DNA of 34,051 nucleotides from positions 160,545 through 194,595 of the IMG/VR virus record IMGVR_UViG_3300048599_000816; one strand, given 5' to 3'. The notes under the pieces are model-generated. The model saw nothing but the letters and a program-made list of their open reading frames with translations, ran no database searches and was not told where the DNA came from. Both the position numbers and the translations under genes were made by a program. This document shows, piece by piece, positions 2,536 through 29,450 of this stretch. Source of the stretch: a virus. How positions within the stretch are numbered: position 1 is the first letter of the stretch; each line of letters begins with the position of its first letter.

Positions 2536-3100
2536 TTGTTTGCTCTTTTTTTAACTTTTTAATTGTCTCTTGCATTTCTTGAATAATCAAGTTCTGATGA
2601 GACAGTTTTTGTTGCATTTCGCTGACTACAGAAGAATTGTGTCTCATAACTTTATCTAAATCACGTTGCAACTTCTCTACCATCTGATTCTCAACGTTTT
2701 TTACTATGTTGTTTAATTCATCTTTGTCATTAATCAACACGTATTTGCCTTGATCATCAGATTTTTTAGTAAGAAGACTGACTCTACTATTAAAATCTTT
2801 TTCGAACAAATTACTTAACTCTTGTTCTTCAGCTTTATTGAGCGCAATTATGTTACGCAATTTACCGCACAAAAACGACTCTGTACCTTGAAACTGTCTA
2901 TCAATGTACTCTCTGTCAGGCATTAAAGCAACTTCTTGCAAAGTCGGTCCCCCAACACAACCTTTAAAAAAATCTGGACAATGTGTACAAGGGACCGGCT
3001 TTAATAAACCCAACAAAAATATAGCTTCATTTTTGTCTATATAAGAAATTGAGAAGTCATTTGCTTCTATAGAATCTCCATCGAATTGTTTTACAAGCAT
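2525..3100 (-). CDS. Hypothetical protein (191 aa) with a Cys cluster CTHC-x6-C and a C-terminal coiled-coil.
   Basis: ORF track. It overlaps both neighbours by a few nt, which suggests coupling. Confidence 0.45.
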   Translation of the reverse strand: MLVKQFDGDSIEANDFSISYIDKNEAIFLLGLLKPVPCTHCPDFFKGCVGGPTLQEVALMPDREYIDRQFQGTESFLCGKLRNIIALNKAEEQELSNLFEKDFNSRVSLLTKKSDDQGKYVLINDKDELNNIVKNVENQMVEKLQRDLDKVMRHNSSVVSEMQQKLSHQNLIIQEMQETIKKLKKEQTNEH

Positions 3101-4761
3101 TATTTTTTCCCAAGCACATCATCAATTATTTTCGAATCACTTTGATTGTCAAAAATATCAACATTATAGCTATTTGCACTTATAAAACTTTCTTGTGTTT
3201 CTACAGTTTCAGTTCTATCTTTAGAAGCTTTTTTACCAATATTTTTCTTTTCTTCATCTAAAGCAGCTTGAATTCCAAGAGCAAACTTAGAAACAAGTTC
3301 TAAATTGCAATCGCTTTTCAATTGACTTGCAAATACGTCAATATGTGTTTTAGGAACAAAAGTTGCAGCTTTTTCAAAAACTCTTTTTGCAGCTCTTGGT
3401 GAGCGAACTAAAGGATTGTTTGAAATTAACAATGCAACCTTCGTGCATGTGCCACAATTGTGTAAACTACAACCAACACATTTTGAATTTGCTTTCAAAC
3501 TATAAATCAACTTGCTTCCTGCATGTTGAAGTTTTGAAAAAGCATCAGCCATTTCATCACAATTTGAATATATGTTTGAATCAATAAACAAATAACCAAG
3601 TTGACCATAATGTTTTTGAAGTTTGTACTCATGCTCAGCTAAAAACAAATTAGTTGCTTCAAGACCAAAATGTTTTTTAAGCGAACTTTTAACAAATTCA
3701 AGATCATTTCCTGATGTCATCAAAGCAAAAGCATAATTTGTCATTGCTTTTGAATCTATTGATACAGGTTTTGCTTTAGGTTCTATCTCTACACCTTGTA
3801 AAGTTGAACTTGCAAAATTTGTATCAAAAGTTTGACGATTACTAAAACGTTCAAACTTTGTCAATTCATCTTTGTATTTTTCAGAAAAATCTTGAAATTT
3901 ATCATAACCAAAAGTTCTTGCAAGTTTCTTACCAATTTCTGACCTAGAAAGCTTTGAATTAATTCCAAGCTTATATTCATTAAACATTCTTGCAAGTATA
4001 TTTTGCTTTTCTGTAGAAGAATTCTTTTTTGCATTGTTATCAACATCACGAACAGTCAGTTCTTTGTCATCTGTATCTCTTTGAAATGCAACTCTAGCTT
4101 CTTTATTCTCGTAATAACTTTGTTTGATTTTATCTAGTGAGAATAAAAATTTAGAAGTTACAAACACAGGACGTTTTTGCTCTAACAAACTTTTGTATTC
4201 TTTGACAATAGAACTAGTGACATATTCAAGTTTTGAAAATTTATCAAGAATATCATTAACTGTTGAACGTCGAACTTTAAAATCAACTTTTGATTGTTCT
4301 ACAAGATTTGCATTTTTTTCTTCAAGACTTTCAAAACCAAGAAAAGCATATTTGTCTAGAACTAAACGAATCTTTGATTCAAAGTATTTGAATACGAGCT
4401 CTTTATCGAACTTAGAAAGAAGAGCAGATTGAATTTGTTCAAAACTGTTCTGTTCACGAATCATTGCTTCAACAGCTCTATCTACAGTCTTTATTGCAAC
4501 ATCTTGGGCAACACGTTGAGATTTTTCTTCTGTGAATCTGTTTTGTCTATTTGATTCTCTAGACCCGTCAGAAGTCAGTTCGTTTGCTCTAGATAAACCC
4601 GAATCCTTGTCAAAAGGGATATTAGGTACTTCTAGTTTAGGAGGCTCGTAATTAATCTCCTGTTCAGCGAGCTTTTCAATATAATCAGGCATTGTTTTAC
4701 GACTAGACTCTTGTAGTATACCTGAAAAACCTTGATCAAAAACACCATTTAACTCATCCAT
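3100..4761 (-). CDS. Hypothetical protein (553 aa) with a CVGCSLHNCGTC (C-x2-C-x4-C-x2-C) metal-binding-like cluster near the C-terminus.
   Basis: Long ORF. AAAAGGAGAAAAAATG Shine-Dalgarno upstream of the start at 4761. Confidence 0.55.
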   Translation of the reverse strand: MDELNGVFDQGFSGILQESSRKTMPDYIEKLAEQEINYEPPKLEVPNIPFDKDSGLSRANELTSDGSRESNRQNRFTEEKSQRVAQDVAIKTVDRAVEAMIREQNSFEQIQSALLSKFDKELVFKYFESKIRLVLDKYAFLGFESLEEKNANLVEQSKVDFKVRRSTVNDILDKFSKLEYVTSSIVKEYKSLLEQKRPVFVTSKFLFSLDKIKQSYYENKEARVAFQRDTDDKELTVRDVDNNAKKNSSTEKQNILARMFNEYKLGINSKLSRSEIGKKLARTFGYDKFQDFSEKYKDELTKFERFSNRQTFDTNFASSTLQGVEIEPKAKPVSIDSKAMTNYAFALMTSGNDLEFVKSSLKKHFGLEATNLFLAEHEYKLQKHYGQLGYLFIDSNIYSNCDEMADAFSKLQHAGSKLIYSLKANSKCVGCSLHNCGTCTKVALLISNNPLVRSPRAAKRVFEKAATFVPKTHIDVFASQLKSDCNLELVSKFALGIQAALDEEKKNIGKKASKDRTETVETQESFISANSYNVDIFDNQSDSKIIDDVLGKK

Positions 4762-6585: not shown

Positions 6586-7259
6586 TAGAAAGCTCCTTTG
6601 ATCTCATAATCTATTTCAGCAACCCCTTTTTCAACAGAACTAAATTTCACTTGATTCTTAAATATTTCTGGTGTTAGTGCTGCTTTTAAATTTTTAAATT
6701 CGCAAGTTAGATATGCAAAAACTTTCCCAAGAATATCATCTATTTCATTCTGATTCAAAACCACGCGATTTGCTGTTTTAAAAATACTCATGTTTTGTTT
6801 AAAATCAACAATCAAAGTTCCCGACATAATATTACTTTTTTTATCGTAATTATATTTTGACCAATCTTCAGAAACTTCTAATTTAGCAAATCTATCAAAT
6901 GAAGCTTTCTTCTCTGTTGTTTCATCTTGTTTTTCCATCTCTTGCTCAACAACATTTGGCTCTTCACTTTTGGGTTGATCTTTTTTCTTTACAGTCAATT
7001 CATCGTTAACTTCTAACTGGTCAATTTCATCAGCAAGAAATTTTAAACTATTGTTAAGTGATTCGCCATAAGTACGAAGTGCATCAGGTGCAGCTAAAAG
7101 AACACCTTTACTGACTTCTTTTCTTCGAACAAGATCTAAAACGTCTTCAAGTACTGTGTTGTCTGCATAACCTTTTGTAACAGCATTGATGACAGCATGA
7201 ACAAAGCTTTTGTTCTCTGATTCTGTCAGTACATTAGTTCTTTCAGCAATTTTGTCCAT
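6585..7259 (-). CDS. Hypothetical protein (224 aa).
   Basis: ORF track. AAGAGGT Shine-Dalgarno 5 nt upstream of the ATG at 7259. Confidence 0.5.
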   Translation of the reverse strand: MDKIAERTNVLTESENKSFVHAVINAVTKGYADNTVLEDVLDLVRRKEVSKGVLLAAPDALRTYGESLNNSLKFLADEIDQLEVNDELTVKKKDQPKSEEPNVVEQEMEKQDETTEKKASFDRFAKLEVSEDWSKYNYDKKSNIMSGTLIVDFKQNMSIFKTANRVVLNQNEIDDILGKVFAYLTCEFKNLKAALTPEIFKNQVKFSSVEKGVAEIDYEIKGAF

Positions 7260-7335
7260 ATTGACCTCTTTTGAATTTTAATACAATAGTTACTAGTTTT
7301 ATAGTTCAATGGCAAGATAAAAACTATAGAAAAAT

Positions 7336-8040
7336 TTAGACAGAAATCTCTTTTTGCACAGTTTTCTTTGATTGCGTATGATAGAGAGAGTTGTACTTTT
7401 TGAGGAGAGAGAATACTTTGTAATAAATTGCAGCTTCTCTCGCTAGTGACACACTTGAAGATTTTTTTAAATACTCTAGTCTTTTTAAACCTAACTTAAT
7501 TCTTGACCCTATAGATTCATAAAGCAAATCAGGTTTGCCTTCAGCTTTCCCAATTTTTTTTGCTATTCTTCTCAAATCATGATCTTTAAAATATTCTAAC
7601 ATTGCAATTTTTTGTTTTTTAGTCACATGTACATCAAGAAAATCTTCCATTTTTGTAATATCAATATTTCTAAAAAAACAAAGCAAGTTTATACGTTTTA
7701 GTGCACGTTTCTTATAATAACATACCATTTCTTGAGATACTTTTAAAATTCTACCCACAACTTCTTGTTTCTTTTTATAGAAAAACAATAAAAGTATCAC
7801 ATATTTTTCTATTTCTGGTAGCATGTGCTCTATAACATAATTTACTTCATTGATTTTCTCTTCATTCTCGAGCTCAATTTGAACGTCTTCAGAAGTATAG
7901 AGACTGTCACTATTTGAAAAAAACAACTCTAAAAGATTATTGTCAATTCTGACTTCACGTTTATATGCACTGATATCTCCACTTGGATCAAAGTGTCTTA
8001 TAATACTTGACTTACTTAATTTTGGGAGATAATCATCCAT
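7336..8040 (-). CDS. Sigma-factor-like protein (234 aa) with a region-4-type helix-turn-helix (VSQEMVCYYKKRALKRI).
   Basis: The motif resembles sigma-70 region 4 (lg.s.erVrqie.rAl.kL). The rest of the protein is not recognisably sigma region 2. Confidence 0.4.
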   Translation of the reverse strand: MDDYLPKLSKSSIIRHFDPSGDISAYKREVRIDNNLLELFFSNSDSLYTSEDVQIELENEEKINEVNYVIEHMLPEIEKYVILLLFFYKKKQEVVGRILKVSQEMVCYYKKRALKRINLLCFFRNIDITKMEDFLDVHVTKKQKIAMLEYFKDHDLRRIAKKIGKAEGKPDLLYESIGSRIKLGLKRLEYLKKSSSVSLAREAAIYYKVFSLLKKYNSLYHTQSKKTVQKEISV

Positions 8041-8043
8041 AAA

Positions 8044-8187
8044 CTATTCTTCTTTCGATGTTTTTTCCTTACAAGAGTCACATATCATACGACCATTTAC
8101 TAAACTTGTAGCTGGATTTTTACCACATTCTTCACATAAACCTGAAGCTATTTTAATTGGTTGTGGTGTACCTTGTTTGTGAAACAT
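8044..8187 (-). CDS. Small zinc-ribbon protein (47 aa): MFHKQGTPQPIKIASGLCEECGKNPATSLVNGRMICDSCKEKTSKEE. Not in the ORF track.
   Basis: Hand-translated from the minus strand. TAAGGAGTTTTTTATG Shine-Dalgarno upstream. Two CxxC pairs (CEEC ... CDSC). Fills the gap between the ligase-like gene and the sigma-like gene. Confidence 0.5.
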   Translation of the reverse strand: MFHKQGTPQPIKIASGLCEECGKNPATSLVNGRMICDSCKEKTSKEE

Positions 8188-8197
8188 AAAAAACTCC

Positions 8198-9100
8198 TTA
8201 GAAATAAATACAGTCTTCTAGCTTTTTATCTTCTCGTATCTTTATATATCTTGCTTCTTGATATTTATCATCTTTACTATCTTTTTCTGACGCTAACATT
8301 TCGAAAACTTTTCCTACTAAAATTTCTTTATTATTGTACAATATTGTTCTTGTATCATACCCATGTACTGGTACATTCATTATTTTTGTAAGAACATTAT
8401 TTCGTAACTGACCACCTTCTAAAGCAACGATCATCTTTTTCAATTTTGGATCATCGCTCTCTACAAGTCCCATTACAGTCATAAAATAAGTTTGAGGAAT
8501 TTTATAAATTCTCCAAGCTGTACTTTGTTTAAAACTATATTTCGCAGCAAGGTCTTTAAAAACAAAAACCTTTATTTCGTTTCTTAATTGTTCAAAAACA
8601 CTTTTTTTATTTTTGCAAAAACCTGCTTGAATTTTGACTGTTTCATCTTCTTTAAATAATTTATTAAGTATAGTACGTCGATCAAATAAAGGCAAGTTAA
8701 AAACATCTTGTCCTGCACTATATATTATGTCAGTCACGTAAAACTGTGCACTTTTAGCAAGATCATCATCTATCTCACCGAGCTTAAGAAATCTAAAAGC
8801 TTTTGACCTGTCATTCTCAAATGTCAAGTAACCTTCAAACAAAGTTTGTTCAGGTAAATTATTTGCTTTTAATGAATTTACAATGTTTGTCAGACTATCG
8901 ATTTTAAATTGTTCTTTATAGTTTTTTTGCTTTCCATGAAATTTAATTTGACCAGAAGCACATACAAGACCTTGATAGCGAACACCTAAACGTATAGGTT
9001 CCATTATCCATTGGTCTGAATACCAAAACTTGTCTTGGTCACTCTCGTTATCAATAGAACCAACACTCCTTGCTTCCATTAGATTCACAAACTCAACCAT
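8198..9100 (-). CDS. ATP-dependent DNA-ligase-like nucleotidyltransferase (about 300 aa) with an apparently degenerate motif I.
   Basis: WIMEPIRLGVRYQG aligns to ligase motif I (T7-type AEIKYDGVRG) but with K to I and D to L. TLFEGYLTF resembles motif III, YVTDIIYS motif IIIa, PLFDRRTIL the R-rich segment, and FVFKDLAAKYSFKQSTAWRIYKI motifs IV-V. I place the start at the ATG at 9100 (MVEF...). That ATG has a GGAGA Shine-Dalgarno and overlaps the stop of the 118-aa gene (ATGGTTGA). The ORF-track start at 9181 has no Shine-Dalgarno. Confidence 0.5.
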   Translation of the reverse strand: MVEFVNLMEARSVGSIDNESDQDKFWYSDQWIMEPIRLGVRYQGLVCASGQIKFHGKQKNYKEQFKIDSLTNIVNSLKANNLPEQTLFEGYLTFENDRSKAFRFLKLGEIDDDLAKSAQFYVTDIIYSAGQDVFNLPLFDRRTILNKLFKEDETVKIQAGFCKNKKSVFEQLRNEIKVFVFKDLAAKYSFKQSTAWRIYKIPQTYFMTVMGLVESDDPKLKKMIVALEGGQLRNNVLTKIMNVPVHGYDTRTILYNNKEILVGKVFEMLASEKDSKDDKYQEARYIKIREDKKLEDCIYF

Positions 9101-9449
9101 TACAATCTCCAAAAACAAATTGAAATCTAGAAATCTTTCTTTTAAAAACATCTTTAAAAACAAATTTATTCTCATTTGCATAAAAACAAATCATATTAGG
9201 TTTGTCTTTAAAAAACATATATGCTCTACCTGTGTGCAATGCTCCAACACTAGAACATTTTTGTAATAATTGCGTCACTTGGCATTCTATAGATTGCATT
9301 GCAATATTATTTATACAAGAAGTTAAATGATTATTATAGATATGCACAATTTGATTTGAAAAATCAGGTACTATAGAAGTGTCAATACACATACTTTCAT
9401 CAAATTCTATTTGCAAATTATCTTCAAATTTGACAACTCTTGCACGCAT
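9093..9449 (-). CDS. Hypothetical protein (118 aa).
   Basis: ORF track. Its start overlaps the NYN gene stop (TAATG) and its stop overlaps the ligase-like start. Confidence 0.4.
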   Translation of the reverse strand: MRARVVKFEDNLQIEFDESMCIDTSIVPDFSNQIVHIYNNHLTSCINNIAMQSIECQVTQLLQKCSSVGALHTGRAYMFFKDKPNMICFYANENKFVFKDVFKRKISRFQFVFGDCNG

Positions 9450-10057
9450 TATTTCTTTCCATCAAACATGAAAGATTCATCAATTTCAAAAAATTTTGAA
9501 GCAACATTTTTCAACTCTTGTGAAGTAACATTCTTATTAGCAGAAAAAGAATATACTTCTACTTGAATATTTTGCAACTTTAAATACTCTACTAATGCTA
9601 CAAAATCACCATCACCCGAGACTAAAACAACAGTGTCAAGAGCATCTTTCTTAGTGATGATATCTATTGCCATTTCAATATCTAAATTGCCTTTTGCTGA
9701 CCCATCACTTCTTTTTTTCAAATCTTTTGAAACTATATTGTAACCAATCTGTTTTAAAAAACTAACAAAACTTGTATTATCATTATCTCCTTTTACAAGA
9801 TAAGCATTTGAAACACAAAGTTTTCTACCTTTAGTAATGCATTCAGTAAGTTTCTTAAAATCTATTTTTTTCTTAAAATTATCCATTGCACCATAATAGA
9901 CATTTTGAACATCAACAAAAATCCCAACTCTTTCGTCAGGTGTGTTTCTGTTCTCTACTCTTACTTGAAACAAAAAATCCCCTTTAAGGGAATCAACAGC
10001 TTCAAGTAGTTTTTTATAGTTCTGTATTTTACTTTCTTTCATTTTTTCCCTTATCAT
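9449..10057 (-). CDS. NYN (LabA-like) domain protein, a putative RNase (202 aa).
   Basis: VGIFVDVQNVYYG ... VLVSGDGDFVALVEYL ... G..V: this is the conserved Asp pattern of the NYN/PIN-like fold. Confidence 0.6.
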   Translation of the reverse strand: MIREKMKESKIQNYKKLLEAVDSLKGDFLFQVRVENRNTPDERVGIFVDVQNVYYGAMDNFKKKIDFKKLTECITKGRKLCVSNAYLVKGDNDNTSFVSFLKQIGYNIVSKDLKKRSDGSAKGNLDIEMAIDIITKKDALDTVVLVSGDGDFVALVEYLKLQNIQVEVYSFSANKNVTSQELKNVASKFFEIDESFMFDGKK

Positions 10058-10061
10058 ATTG

Positions 10062-12338
10062 TCATTCTACAGTTACCAAACTTCCTTCTTCTGTCTTATT
10101 AACAATAATTTCATTTCCATTAATCAAATCTTTTAAAGATTCAATATGAGTAATGACAAATACTTGTTTATAGATTTTTGATATTTCTCTAATGACTTCA
10201 CCAAATTGTAAAATTCCACGAGCATCAAGTTTAGCAATCTTTTCATCAATTATAAGAGCTTCATGCTTCTTTCCTGCTCTTAATGATAAAAGCTTTGCTA
10301 ATGATAAAACAATACTGAAAACTATACGGACAGTTTCACCACCTGAGTACATTTGCAAATCTTTTGGTTCTTTACCTTCTTCTAAAACCAAAATGTCAAG
10401 TCCACCACCTTTTTTAAACTCACCATCTTGTTTTTTAGGGTCTAGATCAAACTTTATTTTTGTTTTTTCAGAATCTTCATTAAATATTTTTAAAAACTCT
10501 GTTGTATATTTTTCAAGCATTGGTATAGATTCTTTTATAATAGATTTTTGAATTCCATCTTTACCAAATATAGTTGAAAGAATTTGATACAACTTTTTTT
10601 GTTTCATGTTTTCTTCATTGATTTTTGCAAAATGAGCTATATCAGTTTTCATTTTTTCAAATTCATCAATTTTGTTTTTTGTCTCACCAATCTCTTGATT
10701 AACATCATCTATTTCGCTTCTATCTGTCTTAATTTCATCTTCAAGTTTTTCTATTGCAAGATTTATTGCTTTAAATGCTTGTTGAATTTTAGGGTCGATT
10801 TTTTGTTCGAGCTCAATAATATTGTCTTTTTTAGATTTAATTGTTATTTTAAGCTCTTCAATTTGTTTTGTTAAATCTATTTGTTCTTCTTCAGAAGTTT
10901 TCAAATACTCTTCAAAATCTTTTTCTTTTTCTTTAAATGTATTTTCATTGTTAATAATTGTTTGCAAAGAAAGTTTCGCTCTAGAAAGCTTATCATTTTC
11001 TTTCTGCCTAGAAAAAGCTTGTATTTCAAGTTTTCTCTGTTCTTTTTTTACAACATCTAATGAAAGTATTGCTTCGTTAAGAGTTTTATTTAGACTTTCA
11101 ATTTTTCCTTGAATCAAATCTAGTTCATTTTGTTTTGAATCTTTAAACTCGTTCTTGAATTTTTCATCGAGAATTTTACACTCTATTTCAATAATTGGAC
11201 AAATCTTCCCAAATTTTTCAAGTTTTGTCAATGTTGTTTTTATAGCATTCAATTCAGTTTTTAAAACAGCAATATCTTTTTCAATAATTTTTATTTCGTC
11301 GTCATGACTTTTGCAAACACCACTTAATTCTTTTATTTGTTTATCTACAACATCAAGTTCTTCAAGAATCTTTTCTTGATCTTTAATTGTTCGTTCTATT
11401 TGAAGTCTTTCTTCTTTTGAATCTTCAATAGATTGTTTACGTCTCTTATAAAGCTCAGTTTGCGATTTTACTTCTTCAATAGAAGACAAAATATCGCTTT
11501 GAGCGTCTTTGTATGCTCTCTCCAAACTTGTCAGGTCTCTATTGCCCTGAACAATTTGGGTTTTTATTAAATTTTCTGTCTCTATTAAAACATTAATTCG
11601 TTGCTTTTCTTCATTTTGTTGTTTTAACTCAATTTCTTTAGACTTCAATTCGCGTTTTGCTTTTTTCAAAACGCTTTCTAAAGTCTTGAAATTTTGTTTC
11701 ACTTGTTCTTCTTGTTCTAGTTGTTTTTGCTTATCTTGAATAAGATTTATATAGACTTGTATTTTTTTATCTAAATCATCAAATTTCTTACTGCATGCTC
11801 TTGCTGCTTTTTCATATAACTCAATATTAAGCAGTTCTCTAAGGATCTCTTTTCTCTCTGAACTTGTTCCTGTAATAATTTGAAGAGATTCACGTTCGTT
11901 CAAATAAGTTGTTGAACTATATGTTTTTGCGCTCAAACCAAGTATTTCTTCGATTGTTTTATCAGTTTTTTTCCAAGTAGCATCTTTCATCTCATTACTT
12001 GTTGTATCTAAAAAAATTTCATAAAGAGCAGAAGAATTTCTTGTTTTTGATCGAATCGATTTAAAACGTTGACCATCGATTTTAAATATGACTTCAAGAT
12101 ACATCTTTGTCATACTGTCATTTATATAGCTATCTAGCAAATCAGCTCTTCCTGAGCCTTTTCCAAAAAAATTCACAACTATTGCTTCAAAAAGACTAGA
12201 CTTTCCAGCACCATTCGACAATTCTGCGTCATCATTAATTCTACCAAGAACAAGACAAGCTTGAACATCAGACAAATCAATTTCTTGGCGTTTCCTATAA
12301 CTTAAAAAACCTTCAAGTATAATCTTCTCAAGTAACAT
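10062..12338 (-). CDS. sbcC: SbcC/Rad50-like ATPase (758 aa) with a long central coiled-coil.
   Basis: N-terminal Walker A (SNGAGKSSLFEAI). C-terminal signature SGGE followed by Walker B (ALIIDE). The middle is K/E-rich and heptad-like. Confidence 0.85.
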   Translation of the reverse strand: MLLEKIILEGFLSYRKRQEIDLSDVQACLVLGRINDDAELSNGAGKSSLFEAIVVNFFGKGSGRADLLDSYINDSMTKMYLEVIFKIDGQRFKSIRSKTRNSSALYEIFLDTTSNEMKDATWKKTDKTIEEILGLSAKTYSSTTYLNERESLQIITGTSSERKEILRELLNIELYEKAARACSKKFDDLDKKIQVYINLIQDKQKQLEQEEQVKQNFKTLESVLKKAKRELKSKEIELKQQNEEKQRINVLIETENLIKTQIVQGNRDLTSLERAYKDAQSDILSSIEEVKSQTELYKRRKQSIEDSKEERLQIERTIKDQEKILEELDVVDKQIKELSGVCKSHDDEIKIIEKDIAVLKTELNAIKTTLTKLEKFGKICPIIEIECKILDEKFKNEFKDSKQNELDLIQGKIESLNKTLNEAILSLDVVKKEQRKLEIQAFSRQKENDKLSRAKLSLQTIINNENTFKEKEKDFEEYLKTSEEEQIDLTKQIEELKITIKSKKDNIIELEQKIDPKIQQAFKAINLAIEKLEDEIKTDRSEIDDVNQEIGETKNKIDEFEKMKTDIAHFAKINEENMKQKKLYQILSTIFGKDGIQKSIIKESIPMLEKYTTEFLKIFNEDSEKTKIKFDLDPKKQDGEFKKGGGLDILVLEEGKEPKDLQMYSGGETVRIVFSIVLSLAKLLSLRAGKKHEALIIDEKIAKLDARGILQFGEVIREISKIYKQVFVITHIESLKDLINGNEIIVNKTEEGSLVTVE

Positions 12339-12357
12339 AAAAATCCTTGTGTAAGTT

Positions 12358-12396
12358 CTTGTTGTTCCTATAGATTTATACTATAAGAACAACAAG
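12358..12396 (-). promoter_or_regulatory. 16-bp stem-loop immediately upstream of the sbcC ribosome-binding site.
   Basis: cttgttgttcCtatag-atttata-ctatAagaacaacaag. On the minus-strand transcript the single mismatch becomes a G-U wobble. On the plus strand it is a C/A mismatch. Lies between the 103-aa gene stop and AAGGATTTTTATG of sbcC. Confidence 0.45.
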
Positions 12397-12406
12397 ATTG
12401 AACAAA

Positions 12407-12718
12407 TTATTTATTCTGCTTTAACTCAGTAACAATTTCTAAAATTTTGTCTAATTGTTTTTGCATATCACAAAGAACAGGTTCTATTTTTTTCATAAGC
12501 AATTCAGACTGTGTAACTATTGGTTTACAAATTTCAGATTTTCTTTGCAAATTTTGCTTATCTAGATCTTGCAAATTTTCAATAAAACCTAATGTTTGTT
12601 TGTTCATTTCGCCAGCAATTTTTTTAGCGTTTTGTAAAAAATCTGCATTAACTGTGTTGATTTTCAATAAAGCTTCTTGTATCTTGTTTTTATCTATCTC
12701 TCTGTTTTCTTTATTCAT
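12407..12718 (-). CDS. Hypothetical coiled-coil protein (103 aa).
   Basis: ORF track. K/E/Q-rich heptad-like composition. Confidence 0.45.
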   Translation of the reverse strand: MNKENREIDKNKIQEALLKINTVNADFLQNAKKIAGEMNKQTLGFIENLQDLDKQNLQRKSEICKPIVTQSELLMKKIEPVLCDMQKQLDKILEIVTELKQNK

Positions 12719-12732
12719 ACGTGACTCCTAGT

Positions 12733-14922
12733 TTAATAGCCTACTTTTTCTTCGCCAAGTTCAAAAACACATTTGATACCATCAACAACAAGTTCGCAAT
12801 TCTCTCTGCTTGTGAATTCTTTAAACCATTTGCGACCAAGTATGACAGCCATTTTTGTTTTTTGAATATTTGAACGAAGTGATCTCAACTTTTTCTGTTT
12901 CTCTCCAATAGTTTTTTCAAACCATGAAGCAATTTCAGCTTTATCTTTGAGTGTTGCTTTTGCGTTTTCCCACAATGTGATTCCTGTTTCAATCAATGCT
13001 TCTGAAGCTGTTCTTGATTTATTTGAAGCAATCTTTTCCATGACTTTTTTGACAGTGGGCAATGTAGCAATACCTGACAATTTAATATCAAAAGTTTTAG
13101 CCATGTAAAAATCTACAGGGTCAGCTTTATCTGTTGGTGGAGAATAAACTCCTCCTCGTTCAACAAGAATACCATTCTCTTTTAAGAACAAAGCTTGTTC
13201 CTCAGTAAAATTTGATGGTACTTCTTGCTCATCACCAAGAACATCTGACTTTAACCACTTAAGAGCTTTAATCTCACCCTTAAGCTTCTGTTCAGCAAGA
13301 ACATTTTTGCAAAGTTCTTCACCTGAAATATCATCACCAGCAAGAACTCTATTGATTGCAGGAAGTTTTCCAAGATCTATTGCATAAACTTTTGATGTTT
13401 TAAAATCATCATCAACAACAATGCCTTCGTTCTTGAATTTCTTGTATGACTCTTGTGAAGAAGTAAGATAGAACACTTTTGTATGGGTATGACCATCTTT
13501 TACGAAAGTATAGTTTCTAAAAACGTAAGTCGGATATTTGTCAATAAAACCCATTTGAGCTGCAGTTTTACCATTTGCTTCATGAAGGTCTATTGTACCT
13601 TTTATTGAAGTTTGAACTGACAAATTAAGACGACTTTCATGCCATACTAAAGTATTAAATGGACACTTACTTGTTTTATCTGCATAAAACTTGCTGTATC
13701 CGTCTTTTTCAGATGATTTTACACCAATTTTCTCATACGCAAACTTTTCGTGATACGGGAAAAAAGCACTTTCAGAATCTTCTGTTAACATATTTAATGC
13801 ATCATACACGCAAAAAGCGTCAGCTTTGGGAAGATAAGTTGCATCACGTCCACATGTGAATCTTGAACTTACATCATTTACAGACTTGCTTATAAATTCT
13901 TCAGTTTCTCCAAACTCTTCAACCATAAAAGCGTTATTAAGCTTGTCAATGATAGCTTTATCCCCAGCTTTTCCAACAATCTCCATAGCAATATCAGTTT
14001 TAGTTTGTTGACTCATTATCAATGCAGCACCATAAATTGCTTTTGCTAATGAATCTTGATTTGACCCAAAATCTACTTTCAAGAGATCAACTTTGTCCCA
14101 AGACTTTGTGTTTGGTTTCTCTGTTGTAAGATAATAGATTTTTACAGGCTTTCCTTTTTCTGGTGCAACATAAATTTTGTCATCATCAAGAGAAAGCGAA
14201 ACAACACCCTGATCAGTAACAGAAAAAATTGCTAAAGTATTTGAAAATAAAGGTTCGACTTCTTCTTTAGGTTCGCTTGAACTTGACATATCAACAAGTT
14301 TTACAATGTGATTTGTAAATTCTTTGACATTTGAACTGTGAATCAACATAGCACCAAGTTTTTCAGACATTTGCGCCATCAACTCTTTGTTGTAATAACA
14401 ACCACAACCTATCAACATTGCTGTATGAATTTTACCTTTGATTTTTTTGATAGAAGCAAAAATTGTATCTACTTCTTTTTTGTAGTTGCTAACAACAGGA
14501 TAACCATCAGTAAAAAGACAAAGCGAAAAGGTTTTTGATAAAACAGACAAATCGTTTACGACAACATCAGTATCAGTGAGAATTTCACTAAAACATGTAG
14601 TGCCTCTTGTTGTGTTGTTCTTTTTAATTGCAGCTTCAAGCGATTTATAATCAGCATTGTCAACAATTCTAAATCCTTTAAAAACCCAATTAAAATCACC
14701 TTCGCTGCTAAACCAGCCCAATGACAAAGAATCTCCTTTTGGGATCTTCTTTGATAACGTGATAAGTTGATCACAAAGTTCAGTAATCAACCCGTACATT
14801 GAACCTGATCTATCATAGATCCAAATATGATTTACAGGTTCTTTTTTTGCAACAATCTTTTTTGATTTTATTTCTTGTTCAACCAAAACAAGATCATTGT
14901 CAAATTTGACATACTTTGGCAT
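12733..14922 (-). CDS. Large von Willebrand factor A (vWA) domain protein with an intact MIDAS motif (729 aa).
   Basis: N-terminal IWIYDRSGSM (DxSxS), then TTRGTT (Thr), then LCLFTDGYP (TDG) make a complete metal-ion-dependent adhesion site. The remaining roughly 500 aa are unrecognised. Confidence 0.6.
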   Translation of the reverse strand: MPKYVKFDNDLVLVEQEIKSKKIVAKKEPVNHIWIYDRSGSMYGLITELCDQLITLSKKIPKGDSLSLGWFSSEGDFNWVFKGFRIVDNADYKSLEAAIKKNNTTRGTTCFSEILTDTDVVVNDLSVLSKTFSLCLFTDGYPVVSNYKKEVDTIFASIKKIKGKIHTAMLIGCGCYYNKELMAQMSEKLGAMLIHSSNVKEFTNHIVKLVDMSSSSEPKEEVEPLFSNTLAIFSVTDQGVVSLSLDDDKIYVAPEKGKPVKIYYLTTEKPNTKSWDKVDLLKVDFGSNQDSLAKAIYGAALIMSQQTKTDIAMEIVGKAGDKAIIDKLNNAFMVEEFGETEEFISKSVNDVSSRFTCGRDATYLPKADAFCVYDALNMLTEDSESAFFPYHEKFAYEKIGVKSSEKDGYSKFYADKTSKCPFNTLVWHESRLNLSVQTSIKGTIDLHEANGKTAAQMGFIDKYPTYVFRNYTFVKDGHTHTKVFYLTSSQESYKKFKNEGIVVDDDFKTSKVYAIDLGKLPAINRVLAGDDISGEELCKNVLAEQKLKGEIKALKWLKSDVLGDEQEVPSNFTEEQALFLKENGILVERGGVYSPPTDKADPVDFYMAKTFDIKLSGIATLPTVKKVMEKIASNKSRTASEALIETGITLWENAKATLKDKAEIASWFEKTIGEKQKKLRSLRSNIQKTKMAVILGRKWFKEFTSRENCELVVDGIKCVFELGEEKVGY

Positions 14923-14950
14923 ATTAGTACCTTTCTGCTCTTACGAGCTC

Positions 14951-16111
14951 CTAAGTGTTTATAATATCAGCTAAAATTTCTTCACCTGCTTTTAGTACTT
15001 CTTCTTTAAGATCAATTTCAGATTGTTCTACATAACTTCTAAACATTTCAACATAATTAAGTTCTTCATTATGTTTTATTTTTATTTCGCTTTGCTCTTC
15101 ACGAACTTCTTGAATACTTTTCCCTATGTAATTCCAAGACTCTTCTTCAAGAAACTGTTCAAGTCCAGTAAAATTTATCAAACTTTTATCTTTTTCTCTT
15201 ATGACTGCTTTCAATCTCACAATAGATTTACTTAAATCCAAGTCTTGAACTGATTCACAAAAGCCTGCCATTTGCTGTCTTGGATCATCAAGAAGATCAA
15301 CAAACAACGTCTTGAACTCTCTATCTTCTATCTCAATAAAAGTATCTTCAGCGTCACGAACAAAATAAAAACCTTTTTTCTCACCCTCTTCTCCAAAATC
15401 AACTTTAGCAATAGAGCCCACATGTCTACAAAAAAAGTTCATTTCTTGTTGTTTGTGTATGTCACCCAAATATACTTTAGTCCAAACATTTTTATCGAAA
15501 ATTGCTAAAGGAAGAACTCTATTACATTTTTCATCCATTCCCATATCGAAACTTTGACCTGCTACAGATTTATCTGTAGCATAATGCCCAAAAAAGTACT
15601 TAAATTTCTTTTTACTTTGTACAGCTTTTTCAGTCAAACTCTTAATGTTTGTTATAACATAGTCATGAAACTGTTTTGCTTCAATATTTGCATCAAAAGG
15701 ATTAACATGAGGCATGAAACAAAAAATCGAATCTTCAACTTCTATAGCAGTGGGTTGGTCGATGACATAAAGATTTTCTATTTGTGTACTAAGTTCTACG
15801 AGCTCAACAAGATCGTGGCCATGAGATTTTCCTTGATCATGATTGCCGAGAAGTAAATAGATTTTTATGTGTCTATCTAGCGCCCATTCAATTTTTGAAG
15901 AAAGTAATCTTCTAAAAATTTGTGCAGGTCGTTTTGTATGGTAAAAATCACCCAAAATCATCACTGTACTTATTTTATTTTGATGTGCATAATTTAGTGC
16001 TTGTTGAATATTATCTAGAATGTCTTGCGTTCTAGAGTCATAACCCAAATTATTCATTTTACCATATTTGTAGCGACCTAAATGAATATCTGATAATAAT
16101 ACCATTTCCAT
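14951..16111 (-). CDS. sbcD: SbcD/Mre11-like calcineurin-fold nuclease (386 aa).
   Basis: Phosphoesterase motifs SDIHLG, LGDFYH and GNHDQ. Confidence 0.85.
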   Translation of the reverse strand: MEMVLLSDIHLGRYKYGKMNNLGYDSRTQDILDNIQQALNYAHQNKISTVMILGDFYHTKRPAQIFRRLLSSKIEWALDRHIKIYLLLGNHDQGKSHGHDLVELVELSTQIENLYVIDQPTAIEVEDSIFCFMPHVNPFDANIEAKQFHDYVITNIKSLTEKAVQSKKKFKYFFGHYATDKSVAGQSFDMGMDEKCNRVLPLAIFDKNVWTKVYLGDIHKQQEMNFFCRHVGSIAKVDFGEEGEKKGFYFVRDAEDTFIEIEDREFKTLFVDLLDDPRQQMAGFCESVQDLDLSKSIVRLKAVIREKDKSLINFTGLEQFLEEESWNYIGKSIQEVREEQSEIKIKHNEELNYVEMFRSYVEQSEIDLKEEVLKAGEEILADIINT

Positions 16112-16120
16112 AATAAATCC

Positions 16121-16576
16121 TTATGCTCTAGAGTTACTAGACTGATCTGTAATAGGTTCGAAATATGCACGCATATTATTCTGTTCTCTATTAGAGATTT
16201 TCGGTTGTTCTATTTTTATATCCATTTTTTCATGTAAATCACTCGTAACAGCAAGTATTTGATCTAAACACTCAAGTATATATCTATATCGAATCACAAT
16301 TTCATGCCAAACAAGCCCTTTTTGAGCTTCAGCGAGTAGCATTTTTTCTTTTAACTGTTGTTTTAACCAAAAAAGACTATGTTGACCGTCAGGCATTCGT
16401 AGATCAGATTTACTTAGCAAAACAAGAAAATCTTGAATGTCTTCATTTGTAGCTTTTGTAATTTGAAGATTTGGTTTATTTAAAACTTGGGAAAGTAACC
16501 AATTGACAGAAATTTCATCATCAAAGACAAAAACTCCTTCTTGCTCATCATAATGATATTTCTTATCTTGCTTCAT
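16121..16576 (-). CDS. Hypothetical protein (151 aa).
   Basis: ORF track. Stop/start adjacent to the homing endonuclease gene (TAAATG). Confidence 0.45.
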   Translation of the reverse strand: MKQDKKYHYDEQEGVFVFDDEISVNWLLSQVLNKPNLQITKATNEDIQDFLVLLSKSDLRMPDGQHSLFWLKQQLKEKMLLAEAQKGLVWHEIVIRYRYILECLDQILAVTSDLHEKMDIKIEQPKISNREQNNMRAYFEPITDQSSNSRA

Positions 16577-17410
16577 TTATTGACAAGATAGACATCTTTT
16601 TGCATTATGAGCTTTAGCTACAAAAAGATTATTACATTTGATGCATTTTTTTTCATACAACTTGGGATTGTTTTTTTTCGTATCACTAATTTTTTGTTTT
16701 GATTTTTCAGTATGAACCTTTCCAAAAAACGAATTACCTTTACCTTTTGTCCGAGCACTAATATTCTTTTTTACTTCTTCTGAAAACTTCTTACCCTCAA
16801 GACTTTTAGTTATTTTTTGTTTAGACTCTAAACTATGTTTTTTGCCAAACATTCCGTTATTTTCACCAGAAGAAGCACGACTTAATTTTCTTTTATGAGA
16901 TTTAGAAAGAACTCTACCTTTATTTGCATTACTTACTTTATCTTTTGCTTCTTGCGTATGTTTTCGTCCATACATACCATTTTTTTCGCCTGCTCCCTTG
17001 CCTTTTCTGTTTCTTTTTAACTTTCTAAGCGATTTATCAGACAAATTATGTATTCCGTCACCACCATCTGTCAAATTTGTTAAAGGCCCAGTTTTTAAAT
17101 CTATTCTACCAATTGATTTTATTAACTGTATTTCAAGTTTAGAAGCATCAACAAAGCTCAAATCTGTTTTTATTTTAATTCTAAAAGCATCTACACCTGT
17201 TTCTCTTTTAATCTTACAAATTTTATTTGCTTTTAATTTATTTGAGTCTTTATGTTTGTAAGCAGACTGTAAGTGGTGATCTATTCTATTTTCTCTTCCT
17301 AAACCTATATAAAAGGGTTCAAATGAAAACAAATTATCAAAAACAATTGGTTTTCTTGGATCTAAATATGCATAAACATAAAAATCAGTTTTTTGACGAT
17401 TTAATTTCAT
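16577..17410 (-). mobile_element. Free-standing GIY-YIG homing endonuclease gene with three C-terminal NUMOD3-like repeats (277 aa).
   Basis: FYVYAYL ... FYIGLGRENRIDHH is the GIY-(10-11)-YIG motif plus a conserved Arg. The repeats are GEKNGMYGRKHTQEAKDKVS, GENNGMFGKKHSLESKQKIT and NSFFGKVHTEKSKQKIS. No Shine-Dalgarno. The 5' end overlaps the ruvC-like 3' end by 26 nt. Confidence 0.8.
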
Positions 17411-18038
17411 TAATTGTTGCCAGTGCTATGCCTATAGAATCTGCAATATCATTGTTGACACCACAATCGCTATAAATATCAGTACTAATTTTTTCATACT
17501 GTTTATCAAACTCTTTCAATTTTTTGCTTAAATCTTTTTTATTGATCCCTTGTTTTTTCCCATCAAGTTTTATTGAAATCGTATCAGCTTTTATTCTGTT
17601 AAAATCTTCTTTGTATTTTATTATTTGCTCTTGTCTTAAAAAATTAAAACGAGAACAAATCTCTACTTGAACTTCTGCTTTTAATGAACTCCCACTAATT
17701 CCTAAATTTTTCTTCCAAGCTGGTGGCTCAAAAAAAAATGGTTCTTTTTTCTTATATGAATACACTTGAAAAATCGCAACACCCGAAAATCTAGAAAGTA
17801 CTTTAAGAATTTTAGGCCCTCTCATAAACGCTATTTCTTCAATACCAATTTCGTCTGGATTATGTAATTCAATTGTTTTTTTTAATTCATTTCCTAAAAG
17901 GTGTAAACGTTGTATTGTACTCATAGTTTTTTCACCTCGTATTAAACCATAAGCAACAACAGAAATATTGTTATCAATTAATTTTAAAACACTCCAGCCA
18001 GTACTTTGTGTTGAAACATCTAGACCCATAATTTTCAT
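17385..18038 (-). CDS. ruvC: RuvC-like Holliday junction resolvase (217 aa).
   Basis: N-terminal MKIMGLDVSTQSTGWSVL, consistent with the RuvC consensus MiiLGIDPGlr.tGygV. GGGGTGATAAATG Shine-Dalgarno. Confidence 0.7.
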   Translation of the reverse strand: MKIMGLDVSTQSTGWSVLKLIDNNISVVAYGLIRGEKTMSTIQRLHLLGNELKKTIELHNPDEIGIEEIAFMRGPKILKVLSRFSGVAIFQVYSYKKKEPFFFEPPAWKKNLGISGSSLKAEVQVEICSRFNFLRQEQIIKYKEDFNRIKADTISIKLDGKKQGINKKDLSKKLKEFDKQYEKISTDIYSDCGVNNDIADSIGIALATINEIKSSKN

Positions 18039-18162: not shown

Positions 18163-19422
18163 TTACGATTTTGTTTTTCTTTTTATTGTTGTTGTTTCAG
18201 TTTTTTCATTACCTGAATCTTCAACAAGTTCAGCGTTTTTTTCGTCTTCAGCACTCTCTTCATCTGCTTTTTCTTTTTTCACTATAAAACTTTCACTAAC
18301 ATCAGGATTGTCTTCAACAACTTCTTTATCGCTGTAAAACTTTCCTTCTTTGATGAACTTGTAAATTACTTCTTTTATATGAGGATTACTTTCGATTACG
18401 TCTCTGAAATCCTCTTTTTTGAAATGCTCTATCGATTCATCAAAAACCTCATCAGTTCCTGGTTTCACAAAATTGTATTGACCTCGTTTGAGCTTTTTTA
18501 CAAAACCATTTAGTTCTGCTACAGACATCAATTCGCCATCTTGGTCAATTCCTGTGCCATCATAACGAATCCTAATGATAATAGGATCAGCAGGTAAACC
18601 ACCCGCTTTATTTTTGTCAAACTTGATTTTAGCTTGATGTGCAAAAATCTTTCCTGCTTCATCGCGCTCTTCAGTTTTCCAGATTTTAGACACGCGATAT
18701 GATATAGTGTTGTAGAAAGGTAAAGCAGTACCACCTGTTCTTGATTCAGGGTTTGCACCAAATTTTGCATTAGGATTCATTCTAGTTTGATTGATAAAAA
18801 TCAAAATAGTTTTAGAATTCGCTGTTACCATTGCTGATAAAACTTTCTTGAGTCCCTTTGACATCATTGCTGCAACAGAAGCCATACGCTGTGACTCATC
18901 CATTCCCTTATGAATCATTTCGAGGGGGACTAGCTGTGACACAGAATCAACCATAATAATACCAAAATTACCTGGCGTAATGACTTTCTCGACCTCTCCG
19001 TCTGAATTTAGCTGAACATCGCCAAGGATTGCCATCTCAATCATGTCAAAAGCTTCTTCACCAGATATCACAGGCTTTACGTAAAGTTCAGGTACGTTTA
19101 CACCAAGTTGTTGTGCCCATCTTGACTGATACTTAAATTGATTTTCAGCATCAATAATAAGATGATCTCTAGTAGGATTTTTTTTCTGTGATTGAGCTAT
19201 AGCAAGGTAACCCATAAGAGTTTTTCCTGAGTGTTGTGGTCCGTAAATTTCAACCACACAACCTTCAGGGTAACCCTTACAGTCACCAATTGCTTCATCC
19301 ATAAGGAGCGAACCTGTAGAAATAGAAGGAGGGGGCTTTAAGATACTTGCCCCAGCTTTTTCCCATTTCCCGCCAAATTTCTGTTCAATACGCTCTGCTG
19401 CTGAAATAGTTGTTTTAGCCAT
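18163..19422 (-). CDS. recA: RecA-like recombinase (419 aa) with an acidic C-terminal tail.
   Basis: GSLLMDEAIG...GCVVEIYGPQHSGKTLMGY is the RecA Walker A and L1 region. GAAGGAGTAAAAAATG Shine-Dalgarno. Confidence 0.85.
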   Translation of the reverse strand: MAKTTISAAERIEQKFGGKWEKAGASILKPPPSISTGSLLMDEAIGDCKGYPEGCVVEIYGPQHSGKTLMGYLAIAQSQKKNPTRDHLIIDAENQFKYQSRWAQQLGVNVPELYVKPVISGEEAFDMIEMAILGDVQLNSDGEVEKVITPGNFGIIMVDSVSQLVPLEMIHKGMDESQRMASVAAMMSKGLKKVLSAMVTANSKTILIFINQTRMNPNAKFGANPESRTGGTALPFYNTISYRVSKIWKTEERDEAGKIFAHQAKIKFDKNKAGGLPADPIIIRIRYDGTGIDQDGELMSVAELNGFVKKLKRGQYNFVKPGTDEVFDESIEHFKKEDFRDVIESNPHIKEVIYKFIKEGKFYSDKEVVEDNPDVSESFIVKKEKADEESAEDEKNAELVEDSGNEKTETTTIKRKTKS

Positions 19423-27388: not shown

Positions 27389-28148
27389 TTTTAGCACACG
27401 TCTTTTTATACTGACAAAAATAACAATCACCTAGTCTTGAATTCAATTTAGGTTCTTTTGCAAAATCTTTCTTTGATATTCGTTCAAGCATATTGTTAAT
27501 TTGTCTAAACAAACTATTAAAATCTTCTTCAGTTCTTTGTGTAAACAAAATATCTCCATCAATAGGATATGCAAGCGCTCCATGAATTGATTCTAATGGA
27601 TATTTATATAGTTCTTTAATGAAAAAACTATAAAAAGTGATTTGTGTATTGTTGTCAATATCTTTCTCTTTGCTTTTTGAAGATTTCCAATCAAGACAAA
27701 TGATTATTTCATTGTTCTCAAGAATAATATCAATCCTACCTGACAAAAAAACATTATCAAGATAAGGATTAATAAAGGGTATCTTACAATATTTTTCTAT
27801 TTCAACTACTCTAAAACCTTCCCAACGTTTTTTCATTTTCTTGACATTTCCAATTTGCAATAATCCCTTAACTAAACAATCATCAAGTTCTTTTGCATTA
27901 GGAAAATTTAAACCCTTTGCTTCTGTACAAAAAGCTATAAACAATGCTTTCCAAGATGAAGCAATTTCATCTAAACTCATTCCATACTTGAAATGTAATT
28001 CTAAAGCTTTATGTAAGACTGAACCAAAAGTCGTAAAAATATATGCTTCATCAGCTGGTCTCTCATCAATAAACTGCCATTTGTACATTTGCGAACATTT
28101 AAAAAACGAAGACAAAGATGATGAAGAAACTGTTAAATAATCTCTCAT
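27372..28148 (-). CDS. Cas4/RecB-family PD-(D/E)xK nuclease with a 4-Cys Fe-S cluster (258 aa).
   Basis: One N-terminal Cys (FKCSQMY) plus C-terminal CYFCQYKKTC (Cx2Cx5C). GRIDIIL...ICLDWKSSK is a D...D-x-K core. TQITFY is a QhxxY motif. Confidence 0.6.
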   Translation of the reverse strand: MRDYLTVSSSSLSSFFKCSQMYKWQFIDERPADEAYIFTTFGSVLHKALELHFKYGMSLDEIASSWKALFIAFCTEAKGLNFPNAKELDDCLVKGLLQIGNVKKMKKRWEGFRVVEIEKYCKIPFINPYLDNVFLSGRIDIILENNEIIICLDWKSSKSKEKDIDNNTQITFYSFFIKELYKYPLESIHGALAYPIDGDILFTQRTEEDFNSLFRQINNMLERISKKDFAKEPKLNSRLGDCYFCQYKKTCAKNDREL

Positions 28149-29446: not shown

Positions 29447-29450
29447 TATA

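Follow-up and report, generated by a model that had tools for sequence, protein, structure and literature searches.

A gene for a 729-aa protein with a von Willebrand factor A (vWA) domain lies between the genes for the Mre11 (SbcD) and Rad50 (SbcC) homologues in a 34,051-nt stretch of viral DNA, positions 160,545 to 194,595 of IMG/VR record IMGVR_UViG_3300048599_000816 (hereafter the window). We suggest that this vWA protein is probably an ordinary member of the family PHROG 2426, whose gene was inserted at the insertion-tolerant Mre11-Rad50 junction in one clade of huge phages, is co-expressed with Mre11 and Rad50 without dependence on them, and encodes a protein-binding module that relies on its MIDAS (an adhesion site dependent on a metal ion) and carries a novel second domain.

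The vWA gene (12733-14922, minus strand) is really embedded in an otherwise tightly coupled Mre11-Rad50 pair. It starts 28 nt after the Mre11 gene (14951-16111, minus strand, 386 aa; Pfam Metallophos 3.7e-10, phrog_100 1.2e-31, TIGR00619) and is followed after 14 nt by a 103-aa open reading frame (ORF; 12407-12718, minus strand, preceded by AGGAG), which ends 68 nt before the Rad50 gene (10062-12338, minus strand, 758 aa; Pfam AAA_23/SMC_N, phrog_77 3.7e-52, TIGR00618). Shine-Dalgarno-like sequences occur in these gaps, and the terminator scan called no terminator-like site inside the Mre11-to-Rad50 block. This is consistent with a single transcript, and the vWA gene is probably co-transcribed with Mre11-Rad50. 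The gene order was described in the initial annotation of this DNA and is confirmed here; the interpretation given there, a possible accessory or tethering partner of Mre11-Rad50 that could not be matched to a described family, is partly supported.

The family is a described one. The window protein matched phrog_2426 with E = 1.9e-118 (398 bits), a family annotated as 'unknown function'. The tblastn search detected full-length homologues at ~25% identity in 503 isolate phage genomes, with a query coverage of 92-98% in 486 of the 503 records; the carriers are Ackermannviridae (Vi01-like), RB43/KP15-like T4 relatives, Rhizobium T4-like phages, AR9/BpSp jumbo phages and Shewanella Thanatos phages. 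The profile of the C-terminal 462 aa detected 1,321 clusters at 50% identity, nearly all of them 700-750 aa long with the match beginning near residue 270, and this uniformity indicates a fixed family architecture. RB43 ORF119c, Vi01_123c and AR9 gp067 are 24-27% identical to the window protein over 95-98% of the protein, have a similar length (~720-750 aa) and share its invariant MIDAS and conserved C-terminal positions. In these three phages the gene lies away from Mre11-Rad50, whereas in the window and its close clade it splits the Mre11-Rad50 pair.

No functional study of PHROG 2426 was found in the literature searched. The published labels are only 'VWA domain-containing protein' or, by profile similarity, 'magnesium chelatase', the latter given to phrog_2426 in PMC9409062. 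A single peptide of a family protein was recovered in a Vi01-like phage proteome (PMC10892097) and the AR9 protein is not marked as a virion protein, suggesting that the family protein is at most a trace virion component. PHROG 2426 is thus a large, mostly phage-borne family, with more than 1,300 clusters, present in the well-studied Vi01/CBA120-like, RB43/KP15-like and AR9/PBS1 phages and keeping a perfect metal site throughout; the window protein is an ordinary member, novel in its context and not in the kind of protein.

The N-terminal part of the protein is a vWA domain with the Rossmann-like alpha/beta fold (14278-14835, minus strand, residues ~30-215), which together with a beta-sandwich spans residues ~30-270. 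The MIDAS is complete: the DxSxS motif is D37-R-S39-G-S41 (14800-14814, minus strand), the threonine is T109 (14596-14598, minus strand) and the last element is T138-D139-G140 (14503-14511, minus strand). D37, S39, S41, T109, D139 and G140 are invariant in 48 homologues of 40-88% identity (alignment A1) and in a second alignment of 12 sequences including RB43, Vi01 and AR9, down to 24% identity (alignment A5); T138 is conserved at >=90% in both. The DxSxS...T...TDG site reported in the initial annotation therefore stands, and the loss of its residues in homologues, which had been named there as a point against the proposal, was not observed. The retention of these residues in homologues indicates that the vWA domain is functional. 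The window protein reached 18.1 bits against the Pfam VWA_2 cut-off of 27 and the RB43 homologue passes Pfam VWA, VWA_2 and VWA_3, so the assignment to the vWA superfamily is based on the fold and on transitivity within the family. No signal peptide or transmembrane segment is evident in the protein (maximal Kyte-Doolittle value of 1.34 in a 19-residue window).

The C-terminal region (12736-14121, minus strand, residues 268-729, ~460 aa) is conserved, alpha/beta and family-specific. It matched no known fold and no solved relative; the structural model is confident. About 27 positions are invariant family-wide (alignment A5), many of them polar, including D321, R354, D374, N433, S435, R469, K475, N524, R525, K552, D604 and K635; a functional surface of defined extent is suggested by this conservation. 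Two basic segments, residues 386-530 and 601-700 (median pI 9.1 and 9.7), stand among otherwise acidic ones and would be compatible with nucleic-acid contact. A Ku-core or Nbs1-like fold, for which the initial annotation proposed to look, was not detected in the C-terminal region by structure and profile comparison. FHA and BRCT domains were likewise absent: Pfam gave only the weak VWA_2 match and the structure comparison gave no match.

Structural matches of the vWA domain include Ku70/80 and TFIIH p44/p34; Ku70 and Ku80 share the vWA domain, but the window protein has no Ku beta-barrel core after it. The ArnB/4fx5-type prokaryotic vWA-plus-beta-sandwich proteins and the Sec23/24 trunk are 8-18% identical in sequence and have no counterpart to the 460-aa C-terminal region, and the window encodes no ArnA-like FHA/zinc-ribbon partner near the gene. 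The MoxR-associated vWA co-chaperones and the chelatase D/CobT vWA subunits have a vWA domain with an intact MIDAS, like the window protein. No AAA+ MoxR or chelatase ATPase gene, such as a MoxR-vWA chaperone pair would require, adjoins the vWA gene among its window neighbours or in the Pfam lists of the related loci examined. AR9 has a separate MoxR-vWA pair elsewhere in its genome, gp028/gp029 (PMC7824862).

The insertion can be followed in the close relatives of the window. The order Mre11-vWA-Rad50 was found in L010 (88%; identities of relatives are to the window vWA protein), L131 (78%), L008/L009 (75%), L006 (73%) and L130 (71%), each time within the same block that runs from RecA and RuvC to NYN, ligase and sigma, and it is limited to relatives of at least 71% identity. 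The nearest outgroup, L045, was found through Rad50; its RecA, Mre11 and Rad50 are 63%, 51% and 41% identical. The order in L045 is RecA-RuvC-ORF-Mre11-Rad50-ligase, the Mre11 stop codon overlaps the Rad50 start codon (TAATG), and the block has neither the vWA gene nor the NYN gene. L130 is the minimal form of the clade arrangement, in which the vWA stop codon overlaps the Rad50 start codon (vWA-TAATG-Rad50). The two TAATG overlaps together indicate that the vWA gene was inserted exactly at the coupled junction. A recent foreign origin could not be argued from composition: the GC content of the vWA gene (33-34%) is inside the window range (26-38%) and is uninformative.

The same place has taken other genes. 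The small ORFs at the vWA junctions of the clade differ from phage to phage (116 aa; 144 aa; a DUF3307 protein; 53 aa plus a gp49_66-family ORF; 72 plus 138 aa; 166 aa; and 103 aa in the window) and are mutually unrelated, save for a 31-aa N-terminal stretch common to two of them. The 103-aa ORF of the window is an ORFan, matching only itself among 5.8 billion proteins and nothing in isolate phages, and it has only weak matches of the helical/coiled-coil type. It is missing from L010, L006, L130, L131 and L008, where different small ORFs with no relation to it occupy these junctions, and comparison with L010 shows it cleanly inserted after the vWA stop codon and ahead of the hairpin that precedes Rad50. 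The 103-aa ORF as a conserved partner of the vWA protein was ruled out on these grounds. In T4, genes 46.1 and 46.2, small ORFs (68 and 87 aa) unrelated to vWA proteins, lie between gene 47 (Mre11) and gene 46 (Rad50), showing that a phage Mre11-Rad50 junction can hold unrelated ORFs without implying a function in the complex. The adjacency of sbcD and sbcC, taken as normal in the initial annotation, is seen in its overlapping form in L045, but 'always contiguous' would be too strong in view of T4. We conclude that the Mre11-Rad50 junction in phages is an insertion-tolerant site and that the vWA gene is one of its passengers.

Several observations weigh against this conclusion and would be expected of a dedicated third component of Mre11-Rad50, acting in the manner of Nbs1, Sae2 or Ku, in which the MIDAS would tether the complex to DNA ends, a repair protein or the replisome and the operon position would reflect co-function. 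The embedding in the close clade is tight and stable at 71-88% identity, with the start/stop coupling to Rad50 in L130, as for a true subunit. In four further lineages, scattered on the protein tree, the vWA gene has Mre11-Rad50 or a Rad50-like gene no more than 5 kb away: L015 has Mre11, Rad50, two small ORFs and then vWA; L020 has a DHH/RecJ-like gene, vWA, a 114-aa ORF and then a Rad50-like gene; L028 has a Rad50-like gene 3.5 kb 3' of vWA; and the Rhizobium phage TM30 has a fused Mre11-Rad50 (959 aa) 1.5 kb upstream. A DNA ligase gene is immediately upstream of vWA in Thanatos-2 and LigD-type modules are downstream in L129. The vWA domains of Ku70/80 and TFIIH p44/p34, being among the structural matches, serve as scaffolds. 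The mechanism that we propose is drawn from vWA/MIDAS biology only.

We nevertheless consider a dedicated third component quite unlikely. In a survey of ~40 lineages with flanks of 5-10 kb, about 35 have no Mre11-Rad50 neighbour, including the sister lineage L129 and P0016 (both 64%), RB43, Vi01 and AR9. In L129 the genes upstream of vWA are those for a glycosyltransferase, TnpB and DnaJ, and the genes downstream those for a ligase and for LigD-type PrimPol and phosphoesterase; in P0016, L004 (55%) and L005 (42%) it stands amid sugar- and nucleotide-metabolism genes. No Mre11-Rad50 was found near the gene in any of these four or in RB43 and Vi01, and the AR9 SbcD homologue lies at a distance of 53 kb. 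Of the ~40 lineages, 5 have Mre11-Rad50 or a Rad50-like gene within 5 kb, the close clade being the first of the five, and these are scattered on the tree. A uniform null model (genomes of 150-450 kb) predicts ~2.4 such cases, a rough p of ~0.1 by our estimate, and the true expected count is presumably higher because early genes cluster. No neighbour family is common to more than four of ~32 lineages; the commonest, in four lineages each, are Rad50-like protein, RlaP-like nucleotidyltransferase and PhoH. These data show a weak, non-significant tendency of the vWA gene toward DNA-metabolism modules and not a conserved synteny, and a slight link of the protein to DNA-end metabolism may persist; family-wide, there is no conserved Mre11-Rad50 neighbourhood.

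Given this lack of conserved synteny and the other loci in most phages, the position in the window looks like an insertion and gives no evidence for a new repair subunit. The absence of a Ku barrel, FHA or BRCT domain from the C-terminal region and the unrelated ORFs that the Mre11-Rad50 junction accepts here and in T4 also speak against a dedicated component. The initial annotation had itself said that the same vWA gene at unrelated loci would indicate a chance neighbourhood, and such loci were found in the relatives at 64%, 55% and 42%, in RB43, Vi01 and AR9, and in bacterial chromosomes; an accessory or tethering role deduced from the operon position is not borne out. A broader form of the proposal would make PHROG 2426 a phage-specific accessory subunit or recruiter, so far unrecognised, for Mre11-Rad50 or for DNA-end processing in general, with the MIDAS and a new C-terminal fold, and would take the five Mre11-Rad50-proximal lineages and the two with ligase or LigD genes as the remnant of this function; we regard it as very unlikely. 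The result is a caution against assigning a function from a single gene neighbourhood.

The family is also present in cellular genomes. A scan of bacterial and archaeal genomes detected five family loci, four of them in one tight clade whose members are 79-87% identical to each other and ~39% identical to the window protein, have an intact MIDAS and are nested among the phage sequences in the tree. No Mre11-Rad50 neighbour was found at the loci of this bacterial clade, a further point against a dedicated repair component. The full-length, MIDAS-intact retention of the gene and its diversification to ~80% identity in a cellular lineage lacking this neighbour argue for an autonomous module. The loci examined for the bacterial clade are L124, L127, L137, L138 (vWA at 7001-10190), L128 and L139, and a HAMP-MCP chemoreceptor gene is directly 3' of vWA in four of the six. 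The setting is clearly that of a chromosome, with housekeeping genes such as uppS-cdsA and alaS. ParA, uppS and cdsA are nearby in L128 (a 946,942-bp contig) and L139, and L128 also has a short-chain dehydrogenase/reductase and, in place of the chemoreceptor gene, an FHA protein and two Ser/Thr kinases; neighbours at the remaining loci include alaS, TonB-type outer-membrane proteins, thioredoxins and hydrolases. The bacterial metagenome-assembled genomes bear the names Acidobacteria, Clostridia and Blastocatellia, but their GC content is 33-36% throughout, which makes the taxonomic labels doubtful.

A role against the host was also considered, as in the initial annotation. The vWA protein would then be a host-takeover or counter-defence factor whose MIDAS captures a conserved host protein, for instance a defence sensor or an end-processing enzyme, and whose gene rides on the early/middle replication-recombination transcript. 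In large virulent phages the gene usually keeps company with early, auxiliary genes (nucleotide metabolism, methyltransferases, Nudix, PhoH), its behaviour is that of a mobile cassette equipped with a 3' hairpin, and the near absence of the protein from virions (one peptide in the Vi01-like proteome, no virion mark in AR9) would suit such a factor. In the Bacillus phage BpSp it is directly upstream of the gene for a metallo-beta-lactamase-fold protein, gp142 (L135, 7122-7817), which is Apyc1-like at 49 bits against the Pfam Apyc1 anti-Pycsar model with a cut-off of 50. The PADLOC defence-protein models and NCBIfam, the two libraries covered, gave no match to the vWA protein, however, and on these models a defence or anti-defence assignment was rejected. 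Most known anti-defence proteins are small and fast-evolving, whereas this protein is large, single-copy, slowly evolving and conserved in full length across phages of very different hosts; its bacterial retention beside a chemoreceptor gene would be unexpected for an anti-host weapon. We consider the counter-defence role unlikely.

In the insertion reading that we prefer, the vWA gene behaves as a self-contained, portable accessory gene that entered the translationally coupled Mre11-Rad50 junction in a huge phage ancestral to one genus-level clade. It is now probably co-transcribed with Mre11-Rad50 and, in L130, start/stop-coupled to Rad50, and the same junctions later took a changing set of unrelated small ORFs, including the 103-aa ORFan of the window. 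The data show the family membership, the fold, the conservation of the MIDAS, the history of the insertion and the absence of conserved synteny, whereas the mode of binding and the independence from Mre11-Rad50 are inferred. The protein is predicted to be a cytoplasmic, metal-dependent protein-binding module. By analogy with other vWA/MIDAS proteins, the metal site would coordinate an acidic side chain of a partner protein, and the C-terminal 460 aa, as well conserved as the metal site, may provide a second binding or catalytic surface. Its action is probably independent of Mre11-Rad50.

The hairpin between the 103-aa ORF and Rad50 (12357-12397, minus strand; arms 12357-12373 and 12381-12397) was reported in the initial annotation as 16 bp; it is present at this place, and its stem has 17 bp, one of them a G·U pair, and closes a loop of 7 nt (minimum free energy -23.7 kcal/mol, z = -6.5). 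It is kept in L010, L006 and L131 and is missing from L130, L008 and L045. With the window, these four sequences give a consensus of 13 pairs, of which four show compensatory double changes and none is broken, and the sequence of the inner stem and loop (TATAG-TATAAAK-C) is itself conserved; by this evidence, from only four sequences, the hairpin is a conserved RNA structure. No Rfam family and no tRNA matched it. A canonical Rho-independent terminator was rejected: the stem is A+U-rich, 14 nt (ACUUACACAAGGAU) separate it from the only U run, and the terminator scan was silent. A repeated promoter or regulatory motif was rejected as well, the 21-mer being unique in the window and its 11-mer core no commoner than chance.

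We favour the explanation that the hairpin arrived as the 3' end of the inserted vWA cassette and now stands in the Rad50 leader. Of 34 lineages, 18 have a strong stem-loop within 90 nt after the vWA gene, compared with 108 of the 719 ORFs in the neighbourhood (Fisher p = 7e-7), indicating that the family gene usually carries a 3' boundary hairpin, also at unrelated loci. The hairpin could instead regulate Rad50, for instance as 5'-UTR stabiliser, processing site or attenuator, a possibility to which we give slightly less than even weight. It ends 18 nt before the Rad50 start codon in the window and 15-18 nt before it in all four carriers, even where an ORF intervenes between vWA and the hairpin (window, L131); no U-tract comes immediately behind its stem, and the terminator scan did not report it. 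Against a Rad50 element speaks that the hairpin is missing from L130 and L008, whose Rad50 is the same, and also from the outgroup L045.

All genes of the region are on the minus strand, and the order of transcription is RecA-like (18163-19422), RuvC (17385-18038), a GIY-YIG/NUMOD3 homing endonuclease (16577-17410, overlapping the 3' end of RuvC by 26 nt), a conserved 151-aa ORF (16121-16576), Mre11, vWA, the 103-aa ORF, Rad50, an NYN-domain nuclease directly after Rad50 (9449-10057; Pfam NYN 2.7e-35) and a ligase-like gene (8198-9181); the genes were assigned by Pfam, PHROGs and NCBIfam. The gene 3' of the ligase (7336-8040, minus strand) encodes a protein of 234 aa that has a sigma-70 region 4 domain, is possibly a phage sigma factor and is kept in all close relatives. 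A FEN-type exonuclease, an XPD-like helicase, a DnaG primase, a trigger factor and a DnaB-like helicase are encoded farther upstream. The presence of RecA, RuvC, Mre11, Rad50, ligase, primase and helicase genes together identifies the window as a phage replication-recombination module. The identical vWA protein was found on a 426,911-bp metagenomic contig, so the genome is that of a 'huge' phage; a nucleotide-level search of the region against isolate phages gave no match.

The NYN nuclease gene, present in the whole close clade and lacking in L045, is a second clade-specific insertion in the same operon. The homing endonuclease gene is also present in L010 and is missing from L006, L008, L130 and L131. 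The trigger factor is full-length (Trigger_N, FKBP_C and Trigger_C; 28145-29491, minus strand) and its gene lies between those of the DnaB-like helicase and the DnaG primase.

Some loci of the relatives have features of their own. The fused protein of the Rhizobium phage RHph_TM30, gp240 (L134, 472-3351), has Metallophos at residues 1-189 and SMC_N/AAA_23 from residue 313, and is annotated only as 'SbcD-like'. The L129 phage contig encodes a TnpB/IS605 OrfB protein and, separately, an ATP-dependent ligase, a LigD-type PrimPol and a LigD phosphoesterase (2644-3852, 9557-14000), a toolkit resembling that of non-homologous end joining; no Ku gene could be recognised in the part of the contig seen. 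The P0016 locus, on a 302-kb phage contig, encodes a 999-aa sugar epimerase (12777-15776) split by an intein with a LAGLIDADG domain, and this gene adjoins one for UDP-glucose dehydrogenase.

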